A DNA stretch of 10,893 nucleotides from NCBI GenBank assembly GCA_043812975.1, contig JBDRLP010000006.1, positions 1 through 10,893 on the forward strand, written 5' to 3'. Source of the DNA: Candidatus Iainarchaeum sp. (lineage in GTDB: Archaea; Iainarchaeota; Iainarchaeia; Iainarchaeales; Iainarchaeaceae). Below, piece by piece: positions 1 through 6,000 of this stretch (the stretch's first letter is position 1; every line of letters starts with the position of its first letter). Position numbers: made by a program.

Positions 1-3000
1 TGTACTATTATTTGGTCTTCTTCTGCGGCATGTGCTATTGGTGCCACAAGAATTAATGGTATTATGAGTAAGGGGAAGATAACTTCCAATTGTTTTAACA
101 TTTTGTAATCCTCCTCATAATCCTGGTGGTGTGGATGTCAAGTAATTCACCATTAGTGGTGCTATCCAAACCAGAACCAAACCAACTATGGCGTATGATA
201 CCATTGATTTTGCGTTTTCTCTTGATTGTATGTTGCTTCCTGAGAACATGTACATTGCTCCTGCAATGGTTATTGCGATTATTCCGAGTATTGAAACAAC
301 GCCTTTGATTAGGTCGTATATTTTTGTTATTGGCGCGGTAATGGATTCGATGTCTCCTGCGGCAAAAACCATTGGCGACAACAAAAACATTATTGCTAGT
401 AGTGCTACAATTTTTTTCATTTTCAAAAAACCTCCAAAAGGTATAATTCCTAAAACAATCGCCTTCGAGGTTTTATAAAACAATTTTGTTAATCACAGTT
501 AACCAAGACTTAACTACGCTTAACTAAAATAATAAAAACAATGCAAACACCGAGTTTATTTTAGAGGTGGTATCAGTGTACCAGCAAACAAGTCTACAAC
601 AAAAAAGAACAGTAAAAAATTCAAGCAAGAATGCTGAACTTGAGGAATTCAAAAAAATACACTCAGAAACATTCATCTACTTCCTAGAGCAGTATGAGAA
701 GTGGAAGGAATTGAAAAAAGAATCTTAGTTATTTGGTAGTAATTTCATTGCTTTATCTAATGTACTATCAACTTCTTCTTTTTTATACCATGGTTTAGTT
801 ATGCTAATTCGTTTTTCAATATCTTTGCGGGATAATTTTTCGTCTTTATGTAAGTAGATAATTGATGAAAATAATTCTGCTTTAGAAGTGTCTGAAATTA
901 ATTCAATAATTTTCTTTTTATTATTCTCAACATTCACGTTTTCTTCGTTTGATAGTCTAGTGTTTCGAGCTATTTCACTAGTGTATATTCCACCTAACTC
1001 AAAACAGAAAGGCCCTCGTTTGTACCAAGTAAAAGTTAACTCTTCTAAATCCACTATGCCAAAAATTTTTAGAAGATAAGTAGTTTTCTGGAATTTTAGT
1101 CTATTGTCAAAGCTATCTAAATCAAGCTTACCAAAAATTGCTTCATATGCTTTGACTGCTTTTTGGCGTGCCGATCCCATATAATCACTAAATACTAACC
1201 ACTAAGTAATACTTAAATATTGCTCTCCGCCCCATTTTTGCGTTGCAATTCTTTTACTCTTGTCATAGCTGTTTTAATCAAGTCAACGAGCTCTGTTACT
1301 TTATTTGGGGGTATTTTGTCAATTCTATCATTTTCTAATTCTAAAAATTCATCTAAAAGTGAGTCAATTTCCTCACAAGTTTTTTCAAGATCTTCATCAA
1401 ACGGCTCAGCTAAGAATTCATCTAGTGCTGTTCTATTTGGCAATTTATAATTCCTAGATGGGTCGTCTGGCTGTAATGATCCCTTCATTCTTTTGAATGA
1501 ATATTCTAGTCCTTTAAGTTTTCTGTTTTCTCTAATTTTTATAAAATTTACGATGCTGTCTTTGAGTTTGATAAAAAGGCGTTCAGCTCCCCTAATAGCC
1601 AAATCAATTTCTTCTAATTGATCGCCTCTTATGACTTCAAACTCTTGAAAACTTTCCCACTCTTTTAGATCATTAGCCGGATAATATTCTGATTCAATTT
1701 TGACAAAAAGTTTTTCTTTGGCTGTCTTCTTTATTGTTTCTATAAATTTTTTTAACTGCTCTTCATCCTTTACTTGGCAAAAAATTTCTACTTGGTCCCC
1801 ATCACCAATATTCATTACTCTGCCAGGTATTTTAGGGTCAGAAGAATTAGAAATTTGTTCTATAGTTTCTCTTAATCGAACGCCATGTATTTGATCTTCT
1901 GATGAAAGCAAAACCCTATAAACTTCCATTATACCCTTCTGATTAAATTCGTTTAAAAAACCTTCTAGTTTTCTCTAATTAAAAACAATTATATTTAACC
2001 TTGCAGTTATTACTTTCAACTAATTTTTTCCAACAAAGGAGTAGCATTTTTTCATTAAAGCGACCATTTTGTCGAGGTACAGCCTTTCCCTTGCCCTGCT
2101 AAAAGTGAATCCATAAATGCCTTTTGTTCTTTTTTGTCTCTGATTTCTCCAACAATAACCCGGTCAGGCCTCATCCTTAAAGTATTTGTAATTAATTCCT
2201 GCATTCCAAGGTCAATTGAATCTGCATTGGCAAGTTTCACAAAATGTTTGTGAGGTACATTAATTTCCGGTGTTTCTTCAACAAGAATAATTCTTTCATT
2301 TGCAGGAACAAAATTTAAGAGACTATTGAGAAGAGTTGTTTTTCCTGATCCTGTGTTTCCGCAGACTAACAATGAACAATCAGCCTGAATTGCCATCCAT
2401 AAAAAGGCAAGTTGGTCAATAGAAACAGAACCAATATCAGCTAAATCTGTTGGAGTGAATGGTTGTTCGCGAAACTTTCTGATTGTTAATGAAGGTCCGG
2501 AAACTGAAGCAGGTTCAATACAAGCATTAAGTCTTGAGCCATCACTTAGAACAGCATTAAGCCTTGGATTTTGTAAAGTCAGTCTTCTTCCTATTGTGCC
2601 GGCCATTGCATTTACAATAGTTTTGATTTCAGAATTATCTGAAAAGTATAAGTTGGTCGGAAGCCATCCAAAGATAGAATCGAAAACATAAACAGGCTTT
2701 GATTTCCCCAAACCAATAACTGCAATTTCCTCAAGTTCCTTGTCCTCAAGAAGGTTTGTCAGGATTCCGGCAGGAGTTGTAATATTTTCGATTAATTTTT
2801 TTAAGTACTTTTTTTGATCTCTGTCCAGGGTTATATGGTTTTTTTCACAATAGATTTCCAGTGCCTGATTCGGCTGATTTTCTTTAGTGTTTGTACTGCT
2901 ATTTCTGTAATGTTCAAGCGTATTTCTGAGTAGTTTTGCTTCATCTATGCTTAATTCAGGGGTGTTTTTGAGCAAATAAACTAGTTTTCCGCTTTTTTCC

Positions 3001-6000
3001 TGTATAATCTCCCTTGAATCCCCAGCCGCGGAAACAACCTTGGCTCTGTCCTTTTCTTTTAACCCAAAAACCCTCCAGCCAAGAGCCTCTTCTACCTTCA
3101 AACATTCAAATACTTGCTTCGAAACCCCCATCTATATATTACGTTGATTGTCGTATATATTGGTTTTGGTTTTTGCAAACTATTTTAAGTAAAAGATTGG
3201 TTTCTCTTGTATGCGGATTCGTGGAGGAAGAATTGTAGATTTCTGGAAAAATATTCAGAATTCTGTGAGAAAATCAAGGTTTAATCGATTAATGAATTGG
3301 TCAATATTAAATGATAGAAAGGGTGAAAGAAGAAAAAAGCGAATTAATAGCAAAACAGGAGCCACTTTTTTTATGAATCCTGCAGAAGCAGTCGGAATGA
3401 AAAAACCAAAACCAGAAGTAGTAAGTTCTATTGGAGCTGTAGATTATCCTCGTGGTCCTGCTATTGATTTGAAGGAAGGAGTAGTTGGTTTGAAAAATAG
3501 GCGTGTTCCTGGTTCAGACAGGAGAAAAAAATCAAAGAAAAAATAATTATGTAGAACTTATTCTTGTGATTAAGTTTAAATTCTGTTTTATGAGAAAACT
3601 ATATTATGGATTTAGATGAAATTGGTGATATTGCAGATCGTCCTGACATACCCATAAGGAAATTTGCACCTAAATCTAAACAACCTGAAAAAAAATGTCA
3701 GGTTTGCAGGAAAGGGATAACCAAAGAGAACACTCCGTCTATTTTATATTATTCAAAATTCTGTTCCAATCAGTGTAAGGAACGTTATATGTATTCAACA
3801 GATATTTAATTCCACTTCAACTTTTCTCCTAATTTTATTTTGCTTGCAGTTTCTTTTGGAAGTTCCACAAAATACTTTGCTGATTTTTTTGGAGTGTAAT
3901 TCAATATCCACGGATTTAATGTTGTTTTATCAACAACTATTTTTTCGGAATTAAGGTAAACAATATCTATAGGAAAAAACACGAACAGCATGTGGACACT
4001 TGAATTTATTCTTCCTTCTTTATCTAGTTCAAAAACTAATCCGTAATCAAAGTTTTCTTTTTTTTCAAACATCAAACCCTTAAACCTTGAAAACGAAGTA
4101 TTGGCTGTTTTGGTTTTTTCAATTATTTTTTTTCCAGAAGTAGAATTAATTAACATTAACAATCAGTGCTTTTTCTTTTCTTCTCTTATCATTTCAATAC
4201 TCGGCACCTTTATTTCCTCGAGCATTGTCTTTGACTCTTTTGGAGTTATAGAATTGAATTGTTCTCTAGCAAGTTCTTTTCTAAGGGAATCGATTTCGCT
4301 CAGTTTAACCTGCATTTCCTCAAGGATATTCTCAACTCTTTCTTTTTTGCTGTTGGAAGCTTTTTTTTTCATACTCTCAATTTTCCCGTTCTTTTTAACC
4401 ATTAAAACCACATTATTTGAGGTCTTTCACATATTAATAGTTTGTTGTTGCACCGGCAACCACGTCTAAAAACCATTTAAAGCCTCAAAAATCAAATTCT
4501 TTAATGCAGGAAAAATTATCGATTTTTGATGTTAAATCAGATTGGTTGAAAGATCAAGTTTATGTTCATGGTTTGAGGGAAGAAATAAGGGAAATCCTTG
4601 TCCATTTAGGCGGTCCATCAAAGGCATGTCATTTGCTTGGAGTTTCTTATGTTGCTTTGAAAGAGTGGCCGCATGGAAGAAAACCAATCTCGCTTGAGAA
4701 ACTCAATACACTGATTGGTTTTTGTGATGCTCCGTTTCAAAAAGAAATTAAATCAAAGATTGATTCAAAAGAAATTTTATTGAGTTGCAGGTACTCTCCT
4801 CACAAAATAAAATTTCCCAAAATTATTACTCCAGATTTAGCTTATCTTCTTGGTATATGTCTTGGAGATGGAACCTTTGCAGGAGATTCTTCCAATGGAA
4901 AAGGGAATTGGATAATCGGTGCTTTCTTTGACAACCGAGAACATCAAGCGTTGTGTGATTTAATTATCTTGAAAATTTTTGGTATTAAGGCAAAACAATA
5001 CGATTCTAAGGAAAATTGTTTTGAGTCATATTTTGGCTCAAAAGTGTTGCACTGGTTTTTCAGAAGCTACTTTGGAGTTTGCAATGGGTATAAATGTAAT
5101 AGAATATTCGGTCCTGATTTAATTTTAAAATCAGATAAAAAGATTGTTTCTTCGTTTTTGCAGGGTTTGTTCGATTCTGATGGAACAATAAATAACAGAA
5201 ATGTTGTGAAGTATGCGAGCACCAGCAAGGTCATGGTTGAGCAAGTAAGGGCTGTGCTCACAGGGTTTGGCATTGACTCAGGATTTTCTAAATGGCTTAA
5301 GGCTGAGAAGTATTTGCCCCTTTATACAGCCGAAGTGAGGTCTAAGAATAACGTTTTAAAGTTTGCCGAACGCATTAATTTTAGACATCCAGGTAAACAT
5401 GCTAGATTGCTTGGTGTTGAAATAAAATCAAATAAAATCGCTATTAATAGCCCCGTCGTCTAGCGGCCAAGGGGACTCAGTCCATTGATTAATGATTGCT
5501 GGTTCCCGTCGAAAGGATATTGGATTCTGGATCCAATGACCAGAGTTCGAATCTCTGCGGGGCTATTTTGCTATTTTATTCATTCTACTTGTAAGAAATT
5601 AATAAATATGTTAAAAGCATATTAAATTTATGGCGAAACGTCTTAGAGATTCAAAAAAATGGTTTGATTATATTATGAAAAGTATTACTAGTGCGTATCC
5701 TAAACAGAGACAACGAAATAAATCTTTGGATAGACAAAGAAGCGCTCACTTATTTGAATTACAGAAAAAAGCTGATGAATTGGCTGATTCTAAAGGAACT
5801 GATTCAAAAGAGCATAAGAGAGTATTGGCTGAAATTAAAAATGTAGATAGTACAAGGAAATATCATAGACGTGTTGCCATAGGAATACATGCTCGAATTG
5901 TAACTGATACTGTGTTAAAATTATTTGACTATAATAAAACATTACCCGCAAGAGACTTAAGAGATTTAAGAAAAGCAAGTGAGGATTTTTTGAAAGTTCT

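Follow-up and report, generated by a model that had tools for sequence, protein, structure and literature searches.

The window analysed here, a 10,893-nucleotide stretch (contig C6) of the Candidatus Iainarchaeum sp. genome G000, carries genes for type IV secretion (T4SS) at its left end, which raises the question of whether these genes form a chromosomally fixed module, as claimed in the genome-wide survey's note, or belong to a mobile element. Taken together, the evidence makes it probable that the T4SS module lies at the left end of an integrated ICE-like element within a split pilus ATPase gene and is used in the transfer of this element. In literature searches, no published description was found of either a T4SS module in Iainarchaeales or an ATPase-splitting element.

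The VirB2/TrbC-type pilin gene listed in the note is indeed present at positions 115..420 of the minus strand. Its 101-aa product scored above the Pfam cut-offs for both T4SS_pilin (9.5e-13; 48.5 bits, cut-off 26.6) and TrbC (8.3e-11; 42.4 bits, cut-off 27.9). The gene starts with an ATG (MKKIV) located 8 nt downstream of a GGAGG motif, and the protein has a signal peptide and two transmembrane helices (hydrophobic segments 4-22, 41-59, and 73-91). Pilins of the related loci L015, L016, L018, L020, and L021 and of genome G140 share 68-73% identity with it. Downstream of the pilin gene, the first 33 codons of a signal-peptide membrane gene are found at positions 1..101 (minus strand), with an ATG at 101-99 and a GGAGG motif upstream. 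This gene continues beyond the contig end, and tblastn found no remainder of it in G000. Judged from the similarity of its N-terminus to the VirB6-like proteins encoded after the pilin in L018, L020, L021, and G140, it is probably a VirB6-like gene.

Divergent from the pilin operon lies a small conserved ORF of 53 aa (567..728, plus strand), which possibly encodes a regulator. Its homologues are located upstream of the pilin gene, in equal place and orientation, in five loci (L013, L015, L016, L018, and L020; tblastn E values 1e-7 to 1e-10). The ORFs neighbouring it gave no PHROGs match. Two cargo genes on the minus strand, both lacking a counterpart in the related loci, fill the space up to the ATPase gene. 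The 151-aa product of 725..1180 belongs to an uncharacterised archaeal or viral family without a Pfam, NCBIfam, or PHROGs match; its nearest Atlas clusters are unnamed (0.96), and SocA_Panacea (0.84) is a lead only. The 238-aa product of 1213..1929 has an acylphosphatase-like N-terminal domain (Pfam Acylphosphatase, 2e-5; NCBIfam acylphosphatase models below their cut-offs) and a helical tail.

As a third secretion component, the note had named a VirB11/T2SSE-type ATPase. A T2SSE-family ORF of 358 aa is present at 2055..3131 (minus strand), but it is the 5' remnant of a FlaI/TadA-type type IV pilus ATPase gene, that is, a broken integration target and not a part of the T4SS. The ORF matched the Pfam T2SSE profile (1.7e-30) only over positions 79-236 of 370, and its best NCBIfam match was FlaI (195 bits); as VirB11 it reached 128 bits with a cut-off of 250. 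Its product is 90% identical over 355 aa to the protein of an intact 486-aa gene in G003, a 92%-complete genome of the same genus that had no VirB4 match. The ORF covers the 5' three-quarters of the pilus ATPase gene, and the final approximately eight codons and the stop codon are supplied by the element. G003, G004, and G009 have an unbroken ATPase gene (486, 480, and 484 aa, respectively), behind which lie two T2SSF platform genes and a PAC2 gene. Neither these two T2SSF genes nor the 3' part of the ATPase gene was found in the G000 assembly.

The attL junction was placed at 2076..2092 (minus strand) by aligning three intact genes with four attL and three attR sequences. Similarity to the intact G003 gene extends as far as the GKG codons, stopping inside them or directly behind them (about 2078/2079); past the break, the C6 sequence shares 79-86% identity with G003. 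In G000, G041/G012, G042/G178, and G043/G187 the ATPase gene is cut at the identical codon. In all four, the distance from the break inward to the start of the pilin gene is 1.1-3.2 kb. The 3' pieces sit on other contigs. A tyrosine integrase gene (Phage_integrase family) directly abuts the 3' piece in G178, G187, G124, and G167, and contigs of G012 and G068 begin exactly at the break. Within a genome, a core of 8-9 nt is repeated at attL and attR (AAGGGAAG in G042, AGGGAAG in G041, and AAAGGAAC in G043). The split target, the junction repeats, and the integrase at the 3' piece therefore argue against a module fixed in the chromosome and for one carried by an integrated ICE-like element.

Split genes are known in DPANN archaea, and the 3' piece of G178 forms an ORF of 151 aa that starts with an ATG of its own, as would be expected if the ATPase were a natural split gene and no mobile element were involved. 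We regard this explanation as extremely improbable in view of the integrase abutting the 3' piece in four genomes, the short direct repeats marking both junctions, and the accessory genes occupying the space beside the break. Moreover, the 3' part of the ATPase gene was detected in 149 of the 196 genomes of the order, nearly always within frames of about 430-670 aa, and the vast majority of these genomes, including G003 of the same genus, have an intact gene.

The note had also stated that no integrase lies next to the module. This is true of the G000 assembly, in which neither the element's integrase nor attR was found and the integrases on contigs C26 and C20 share no more than 28-36% identity with the cognate type, but the reason is solely that the assembly lacks the element's far end. 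As the assembly is 94.5% complete, the lack of attR, the T2SSF genes, the 3' piece of the ATPase gene, and the cognate integrase would also fit a decayed, inert remnant which has lost its integrase and far end and retains the T4SS genes as leftovers. We consider such decay decidedly unlikely, as the pilin and VirB4 frames are intact with their motifs kept and the missing parts fall exactly at contig ends; on contig C14, 54 nt separate the contig end from the PAC2 gene, which follows the T2SSF genes in G003, and this fits an assembly gap. A complete element bounded on one contig was not found, nor were repeats of at least 14 nt around the copies in G104 and G140. In G140 an integrase gene is located 1 kb upstream of the pilin gene and in G104 10 kb upstream, beside tRNA-Ser. 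ArdC-like genes are carried by the G043 element and, in G008, lie at a distance of 15 kb from VirB4.

The VirB4/TraG-type ATPase gene attributed to contig C36 by the note was confirmed at positions 254-2509. The 751-aa protein matched P-loop_TraG (4e-26) and, above the cut-off, NCBIfam NF045971 for monoderm conjugative VirB4 of the CD1110 family (4e-100; 336 bits, cut-off 325), and it contains a Walker A motif (GSSGSGKS) at 234-241. VirB4 is followed downstream by AbiE, restriction-modification, and nuclease cargo, and the 2.5-12 kb region of C36 has almost no counterpart in five same-genus genomes. The core of the module comprises the pilin, a VirB6-like protein, a PrgI/VirB3-VirB4N protein, a small protein, and VirB4 with a nuclease-like tail; in G000 the PrgI-like gene, the small protein, and VirB4 are present only on C36, apart from contig-end fragments. 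In NCBIfam, the PrgI-like proteins align with the N-terminal 180-290 positions of models for fused VirB4, and in several loci they score above the cut-off of Pfam PrgI. VirB6-like proteins of related loci gave weak T4SS_pilin matches. With a pilin, a polytopic protein, a VirB3-like protein, and VirB4, a reduced conjugation-type T4SS thus exists in Iainarchaeales, as the note had proposed. In line with its statement that no relaxase or coupling protein lies beside the module in G000, searches of five genomes with two families each found neither a relaxase (PF03432, PF02486) nor a coupling protein (PF02534, PF12696), so that the conjugation gene set recovered is not a full one.

Whether the ends of C6 and C36 form one locus, as suggested in the note, is a separate question. 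Content and orientation fit, since C6 ends in the start of a probable VirB6-like gene and C36 begins in the end of a PrgI-like gene (its final 33 codons, 94% identical to L008), but the contig ends do not overlap and the join is plausible but unproven because pilin and VirB4 point to different relatives (the group of L018, L020, and G140 and that of L008, respectively). With their L008 counterparts, the C6 pilin shares 54% identity and the C36 VirB4 93%, a combination that is an outlier among 45 pairs compared; elsewhere pilin identity tracks VirB4 identity, e.g., 79% with 84%. The contigs might instead be the ends of two T4SS loci, an ATPase-inserted element with an L020-type pilin and an unassembled VirB4, and an L008-type cluster with an unassembled pilin, to which we give somewhat less than an even chance. 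The gene order on C6, with the signal-peptide VirB6-like gene directly after the pilin, is of the L018/L020 type, L008-type clusters carry an extra gene of 370-490 aa after the pilin, other genomes have two to three VirB4 copies, and an overlap of 141 nt, lacking between C6 and C36, joins 15 other pairs of contig ends. However, two loci would imply that a stretch of at least 4-5 kb is missing from the assembly at two separate places, whereas a gap of about 2-2.5 kb is enough for one; only one pilin and one VirB4 score above the cut-offs in G000, and mosaic elements are common.

VirB4 was found in 43 of 196 genomes, 21 of 73 genera, and two of the five other same-genus genomes. Its distribution is patchy within genera, and several genomes contain two to three copies. 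All 17 loci with VirB4 relatives reported in the note were recovered; a pilin homologue is located upstream in nine and an ATPase homologue in four of them (L019 and L020 are one sequence). Together with the junction and integrase evidence, this distribution favours integration as part of a conjugative element, which the note had allowed for.

An unlikely alternative use would be that of a domesticated, host-serving minimal T4SS similar to Ced/Ted, acting in DNA import or in docking onto partner or host cells, with the element context reflecting its origin only. This reading is in line with the lack of a detected relaxase or coupling protein, as in the described Ced/Ted systems and most Patescibacteria clusters (PMC9905601, PMC12102498), with VirB4 frames that are intact in most of the 43 genomes, and with a secreted Ig-like protein (F5 family) in some operons. 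In several loci (L012, L015, L021, G008, and G180) the DNA examined contained no integrase, and some loci without one lie among housekeeping genes. It is opposed by the position of the cluster 1-3 kb inside an att junction in G000 and three relatives, by the patchy and partly multi-copy occurrence, and by the lack of sequence matches to solved pilins and VirB6. Read as family membership, the "Ced/Ted-like" of the note was not supported, the CedB model giving 56.5 bits with a cut-off of 700.

The most likely use of the module is thus mating-pair formation and DNA transfer of the ICE-like element itself. According to our model, a tyrosine recombinase would have inserted the element into the FlaI/TadA-type ATPase gene just before the His box, so that window positions 1 to about 2078 would represent its left (attL) end and the 358-aa "VirB11-like" ORF the stump left by the insertion. 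Inside attL follow the two cargo genes, the small divergent ORF, and a minimal monoderm-type (MPF-FATA-like) module. If C6 and C36 are taken as one locus, the parts of this module would be a Sec-exported pilin (VirB2/TrbC), a polytopic VirB6-like protein, a protein that joins a PrgI/VirB3 hairpin to the N-domain of VirB4, a small protein, and a VirB4 ATPase that has gained a restriction-endonuclease-like domain at its C-terminus. The VirB4 motor may build the pilus and drive DNA of the element through the VirB6-like channel, and the fused nuclease-like domain might stand in for the missing relaxase or coupling protein.

Like the module, Ced of Sulfolobales and Ted of Thermoproteales are described in PMC9905601 with a VirB2-like pilin, a VirB6-like channel, and a VirB4-like ATPase, without a relaxase, and the N-terminus of the channel resembles the pilin in CedA/CedA1 (Beltran et al., 2023; PMC9905601), a likeness to which the weak T4SS_pilin matches of the VirB6-like proteins correspond. 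In contrast to these systems, which are fixed in the chromosomes of whole orders, the module is element-borne and patchy, and besides CedB also CedD stayed below its cut-off (43 versus 600 bits). The integrated conjugative elements of Nitrososphaeria and Sulfolobales, as covered in PMC9905601, share with it integrase-bounded ends, VirB4-type transfer genes, and the lack of a recognisable relaxase. They differ in that archaeal conjugative plasmids are described there as lacking a recognisable pilin, whereas the module has one, and in that its target is a pilus ATPase gene and its host a DPANN archaeon; a second TraG/VirD4-type ATPase was not found for the module. VirB4-family ATPases of DPANN archaea are also known from Nanohaloarchaeota, where VirB4/TraG-like ATPases next to giant SPEARE-type proteins were proposed to be part of a secretion system in cell-cell interaction (PMC10266531). 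There, the ATPase domain is fused to or beside giant Ig-repeat surface proteins, and neither an operon of pilin, VirB6, or PrgI nor an integrated element is described.

A further parallel is found in Patescibacteria, whose T4SS, like the module, is MPF-FATA-derived with VirB2-like pilins, PrgI-type VirB3, and VirB6, mostly lacks a relaxase, and occurs in ultra-small, host-dependent cells (PMC12102498). That T4SS is described as a near-universal chromosomal system, present in 2,417 of 3,035 assemblies (Quinonero-Coronel et al., 2025; PMC12102498), whereas VirB4 of the module occurs in 43 of 196 genomes and is integrase-linked. For the Patescibacteria systems a role in DNA import or docking has been proposed; PMC12102498 reports that no VirB3-VirB4 fusions were found and never uses the word nuclease. 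Compared with the MPF-FATA systems of monoderm bacteria themselves, the module resides in an archaeon, its pilin is recognised as VirB2/TrbC by Pfam, its VirB4 is split into PrgI-VirB4N and VirB4, and relaxase and coupling protein were not found. Its additional C-terminal nuclease-like domain of about 190 aa was covered by none of the 976 plasmid VirB4 matches, which had only about 30% identity (at most 31%); among the plasmids with matches, 648 were typed as conjugative. Nevertheless, all 976 matches came from monoderm bacteria, and the C36 VirB4 passes the cut-off of the model for the CD1110 family, which comprises VirB4 of clostridial and bacillus elements. Both systems share the PrgI-type VirB3 hairpin known from pCF10, the pilin and the N-terminus of the VirB6-like protein weakly match the Mbov_0395 pilin-like family of mycoplasma ICEs (Mbov_0395/0397), and both are located on integrase-bounded elements.

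The assembly that holds the window as its contig C6 consists of 68 contigs with a total of 1.24 Mb and is 94.5% complete. On the minus strand of C6, a T2SSE-family ORF of 358 aa (2055–3131) is followed by a 238-aa ORF and a 151-aa ORF, by the gene for a 101-aa pilin (115–420) and, at the left end, by the first 33 codons of a gene with a signal peptide that runs off the contig. The pilin scored above the cut-off of two Pfam pilin models, T4SS_pilin (48.5 bits) and TrbC (42.4 bits), possesses a signal peptide and two hydrophobic helices, and is the sole TrbC match above cut-off in the genome. 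In a PHROGs search with nine proteins, a single unnamed family was matched, by the pilin. The two cargo genes between ATPase ORF and pilin were examined by an Atlas search, in which the 238-aa protein was acylphosphatase-like and the 151-aa protein matched no firm family. Together with the VirB4 gene on contig C36 of the same genome, the pilin and the T2SSE-family ORF had been listed in the genome-wide survey's note, and the Pfam matches on C6 and C36 bear out this list. No RNA run was listed as containing the sequence, and three DNA sequencing runs shared only 0.05 of its words; the pieces obtained from them were short, of low depth and derived from relatives, and carried no information on the junction. 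In run X2, a 928-nt contig links window positions 2035–2087 to 648–719 with 10 other letters in between and "goes back 1440"; it might stem from a relative with a rearrangement, or from the two cargo genes in circular or tandem arrangement.

The T2SSE-family ORF had been taken for a VirB11-like third ATPase of a type IV secretion system (T4SS). It covers only positions 79–236 of the 370 positions of the T2SSE profile and is cut before the His box. The best NCBIfam match of this stump and its orthologues is FlaI with 195–227 bits (194.9 for the stump); with the VirB11 model TIGR02788 they reached 128–144 bits (stump 127.9) at a cut-off of 249.95. Intact orthologues of 486, 480, and 484 aa are present in the relatives G003, G004, and G009, each with two T2SSF platform genes and a PAC2 gene downstream, and the one of G003, which belongs to the same genus, shares 90% identity with the stump across 355 aa. 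In a DNA search of 41 relatives, the genes for the ATPase, DUF192, and geranylgeranyl reductase were widely kept together as a synteny block, and in several of these relatives (e.g., G008, G009, G013, G015, and G017) the pilin gene lies on another contig than this block. In the genome studied here, the PAC2 gene is located 54 nt from the right end of contig C14, and the 3′ part of the ATPase gene and both T2SSF genes were absent from the assembly according to tblastn. A VirB11 identity was therefore rejected: the ORF stays below the VirB11 cut-off and is truncated, and its intact orthologues precede T2SSF genes, and in several relatives the ATPase gene lies on another contig than the pilin gene. 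The "VirB11" beside such T4SS loci is a broken FlaI-type pilus gene, the target of a mobile element.

A free-standing LAGLIDADG homing-endonuclease gene (4504–5463, plus strand, 319 aa) lies within the DUF192-ATPase block; it shows 66–81% nucleotide identity in G010, G002, G017, and G011 and is a short remnant only in locus L020 and in G004. The gene for a geranylgeranyl-reductase-type FAD enzyme (6295–9048, minus strand) contains a LAGLIDADG intein (insert at about 6634–8240; Intein_splicing 2.7e-16). In the same-genus genomes G003, G004, and G005 both flanks are adjacent, which means that they are without the intein.

The break in the ATPase gene, at about position 2078, is designated attL. 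The missing 3′ piece was found on a separate contig in G012 (G041 in a second numbering) and G178 (G042). In G178 it forms a 151-aa ORF whose adjoining divergent gene encodes a member of the Phage_integrase family (Pfam 5.6e-17), and G187 (G043) has the same arrangement with an integrase that is 50% identical. The ATPase 3′ part is present in 149 of the 196 genomes of the order, almost always inside frames of 430–670 aa and rarely in short ones. Nine short-frame regions were fetched: an integrase gene abuts the 3′ piece in two more genomes (G124 and G167), G068 starts at the break, three regions are truncated by the end of their contig, and the remaining three have practically the full length. 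A site-specific recombinase gene is thus located at one end of the element, beside the target, in G178, G187, G124, and G167; in the genome of the window this end is not assembled. The 5′ stump retains an open frame of 355–358 aa here and in G012, and the 3′ piece of G178 (locus L036, 9204–9659) possesses an ATG of its own, and about 10 of its codons are new, supplied by the element end.

When four attL and three attR junctions were aligned with three intact genes, the break fell at the same codon. Within a genome, both junctions carry the same core of 8–9 nt (AAGGGAAG in G042, AGGGAAG in G041, AAAGGAAC in G043), and the intact gene of G003 represents the empty site in a close relative; in the genome of the window only attL is seen. 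The 10-mer TTAGAATTAG, spotted visually some 40 nt inward of attL in G041 and G042, was rejected as an arm site because it also occurs at four unrelated places in the fetched loci. Repeats within positions 1–3300 of the window were short, chance-level matches only. The pilin operon starts 1.1–3.2 kb inside attL in all four genomes with a known attL (this genome, G012, G178, and G187), a count that covers these four junctions and leaves G124 and G167 aside. Beyond the integrase, the element of G187 carries an ArdC-like gene (ArdcN + Peptidase_M78) and genes for Holliday-resolvase-like nucleases.

Several observations count against an element. No complete element bounded on a single contig was found, no integrase gene was present within the DNA examined of L012, L015, L021, G008, and G180, and the integrases encoded on contigs C26 and C20 of the genome studied here are only 28–36% identical to the cognate type, the far end being unassembled. 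The common codon of the break, the core repeats, the empty site and the abutting integrase indicate that the T4SS module, which had been regarded as chromosomally fixed, is element-borne: it lies just inside attL of a split ATPase gene and probably belongs to an integrated conjugative element (ICE) with a monoderm-type T4SS. The original observation is real overall, and its interpretation changes in two respects, the location on an element and the nature of the ATPase gene. On C26, a protein with an SLT lytic-transglycosylase domain and a twin-arginine-like signal is encoded beside an integrase and a PD-(D/E)XK gene (16223–17056 and 14103–15296); an ArdC-N gene is cut off by the left contig end (1–561) and a second integrase gene is located at 5364–6623. 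These SLT, integrase, and ArdC-N genes may be parts of the window's or of another element.

The distribution of VirB4 was patchy, with matches in 43 of 196 genomes, 16 of 55 high-quality genomes and 21 of 73 genera, and two to three copies in several genomes. Within the window's genus, VirB4 was found in G004 and G005, and no match was obtained in G001, G002, and G003 (63%, 80%, and 92% complete). Five same-genus genomes contain hardly anything that corresponds to the sequence of C36 beyond VirB4; that of C6 beyond the break is 79–86% identical to G003. Other signs of mobility include an integrase gene 1 kb upstream of the pilin and SRAP, VRR-NUC, and PolB genes after VirB4 in G140, an integrase gene beside tRNA-Ser, 10 kb upstream, in G104, an ArdC-like gene 15 kb downstream in G008, and a DDE transposase gene adjoining the pilin in L018. 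An exact repeat of ≥ 14 nt shared by the integrase side and the downstream DNA was found neither in G104 nor in G140. Genes for AbiE, restriction-modification, and PD-(D/E)XK proteins are common after VirB4. Locus L019 carries the label Candidatus Peregrinibacteria and matches an archaeal MAG contig (L020) with 100% identity over 11,933 nt. According to passages of PMC12102498, 37 "Patescibacteria" VirB4s cluster with archaeal VirB4s, and some of them might be DPANN contigs in bacterial bins.

To compare gene orders, 17 related loci were fetched. The recurring order starts with a small divergent ORF, the pilin gene and, in some loci, a gene for a secreted protein of 370–490 aa (family F5), one of which gave weak matches to Ig-like domains under the Pfam cut-offs. 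It continues with genes for a polytopic protein of 280–365 aa, a 280–350-aa protein with an N-terminal PrgI hairpin, a protein of 55–76 aa, and VirB4 of about 750 aa. The left ends of C6 and C36 had been regarded as probably one locus, and they are indeed complementary in content and orientation. The C6 pilin, however, groups with those of L018, L020, and G140 (68–73% identity), and VirB4 and the PrgI tail of C36 group with L008 (93–94%). The pilin of L008 shares only 54% identity with that of C6, which makes this pair stand out among the 45 compared; the rows of the L012 pilin in this comparison are void (wrong frame). This discordance means either a mosaic locus or two loci. No contig-end overlaps were detected for the left ends of C6 and C36, the right end of C14, or C26, and tblastn searches of the genome for the VirB6-like and PrgI-like proteins, F5, T2SSF, and the ATPase 3′ part returned nothing orthologous. 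On balance, we lean towards a single locus.

VirB4 is encoded outside the window (C36, 254–2509) and is the sole P-loop_TraG match above cut-off in the genome. It matched the NCBIfam model NF045971 (CD1110, monoderm conjugative VirB4) with 4.1e-100 and 336.1 bits (cut-off 325), residues 6–562 corresponding to profile positions 186–752, and possesses a Walker A motif at 234–241 and an hhhhDE (Walker B) motif at about 441–446. The PrgI-like proteins cover positions 2–179 of the CD1110-family model and 3–287 of the mycoplasma ICE VirB4 model. Since the match of VirB4 begins at position 186, VirB3 is joined to the N-domain of VirB4 in one gene, and a second gene encodes the rest of VirB4. The PrgI-like protein has two TM segments and exceeded the 27-bit cut-off of Pfam PrgI in six loci (L012, L013, L015, L018, L020, and L021); in the genome of the window only its last 33 codons are present. 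Among PLSDB plasmids, 976 records matched VirB4, all from monoderm bacteria with ≤ 31% identity, and none covered the last ~190 residues. In the same-genus locus L023 (G004:C35, 354–4103), VirB4 is split by a LAGLIDADG intein in the P-loop region, at the equivalent of about residue 225–241. On C36, VirB4 is followed within 400 nt by genes for a KaiC-like ATPase, a V4R-domain protein, and a UbiA prenyltransferase (2909–5124), a trio that also occurs 14 kb downstream of VirB4 in G140, a genome of a different family (C1, ~650.4–652.6 kb).

The polytopic protein, represented by 33 codons in the genome studied here, has five to seven hydrophobic segments in the relatives and gave no match in Pfam, NCBIfam, or PDB sequences. 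Its AF2 model (pLDDT 65.4) was compared by Foldseek, and TrwI/VirB6 of R388 provided the only rows with a TM score near 0.45 (probability 0.90–0.97, TM 0.44–0.45). With E values of 0.12–0.3, a VirB6 identity is weakly supported. Searches with its profile and that of the pilin against PDB sequences gave no meaningful match and recovered no solved pilin chain.

The last 175 residues of VirB4 are conserved in 13 sequences, with invariant H641, D668, E687, T690, and K704, and the AF2 model of this domain is confident (pLDDT 87.9). The best Foldseek match was FokI (E 3e-3); nearly all top rows were proteins with a restriction-endonuclease fold, among them YaeQ, R.BspD6I, EndoMS, Mus81, and Can2. 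VIA-align gave Z ≤ 6.9 to Cdn1, VC1899, VRR-NUC, and Hjc, under the level the tool calls safe. The tail therefore likely has a PD-(D/E)XK/restriction-endonuclease fold, which is not established because both the Foldseek and the VIA scores lie below the tools' safe levels. In a large protein database (proteins of 413–1315 aa searched), the domain had 15 matches, all at the end of VirB4-like proteins, which, where named, are called "DUF87 domain-containing protein".

DPANN archaea are regarded as living on other cells, and we know of no route by which they exchange DNA. They would gain a clear gene-transfer vehicle with an element that is bounded by an integrase and encodes a bacterial-type VirB4 and a VirB2 pilin recognisable by Pfam. 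For annotation, the "VirB11" neighbour has to be read as a broken pilus gene, and such VirB4 contigs can turn up in bacterial (Peregrinibacteria) bins. The modelled nuclease-like tail of VirB4 would be a testable candidate for the missing DNA-processing step in archaeal conjugation. A bolder proposal, which we think improbable, is a family of Iainarchaeales ICEs without relaxase or coupling protein, in which a single VirB4 with a fused PD-(D/E)XK nuclease makes or processes the transferred DNA and integration into the ATPase gene deliberately knocks out a host type IV pilus machine, swapping the surface filament or excluding rivals. If true, such processing by a VirB4-fused nuclease would be a conjugation chemistry undescribed in any domain. 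We found no description of a T4SS or ICE of Iainarchaeota in the literature, including passages of PMC12102498, PMC9905601, PMC6393860, PMC12518558, PMC12259885, PMC10266531, PMC13323075, and bioRxiv 10.64898/2026.05.20.726742; VirB4-like ATPases are noted for Nanohaloarchaeota in a passage of PMC10266531. The element is probably a monoderm-type-T4SS ICE in a lineage without such an element in print.

In five genomes (86–94% complete), the search for a type IV coupling protein gave no match to PF02534 and only sub-threshold matches to PF12696, inside VirB4 itself, and the two relaxase families searched, PF03432 and PF02486, were each found in none of the five. These missing matches count against a conjugative element. 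To our knowledge, no relaxase is known in archaeal conjugation. Archaeal conjugative plasmids have no recognised pilin according to the part of PMC9905601 on this subject. The module had also been called Ced/Ted-like, an assignment to that family which is not supported: the CedB model NF041017 gave 56.5 bits (cut-off 700) and the CedD model NF053655 43 (cut-off 600). An ATPase of the CedB/TedB family was not recognised, and neither was a pilin of the CedA1/TedC family in the profile search for solved pilin chains, a result that would not by itself decide the matter. A likeness exists in the VirB6-like protein, the N-terminal part of which gave weak T4SS_pilin matches; for CedA and CedA1, and for VirB6 and VirB2, Beltran et al. 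reported a similarity of this kind (passage of PMC9905601). As in MPF-FATA systems, the module has a VirB4 of the CD1110 (monoderm) family that possesses both Walker motifs, with a VirB3/PrgI-type membrane hairpin protein beside it; a coupling protein (VirD4/TraG/TcpA-like) was not recognised with the two families searched in the five genomes.
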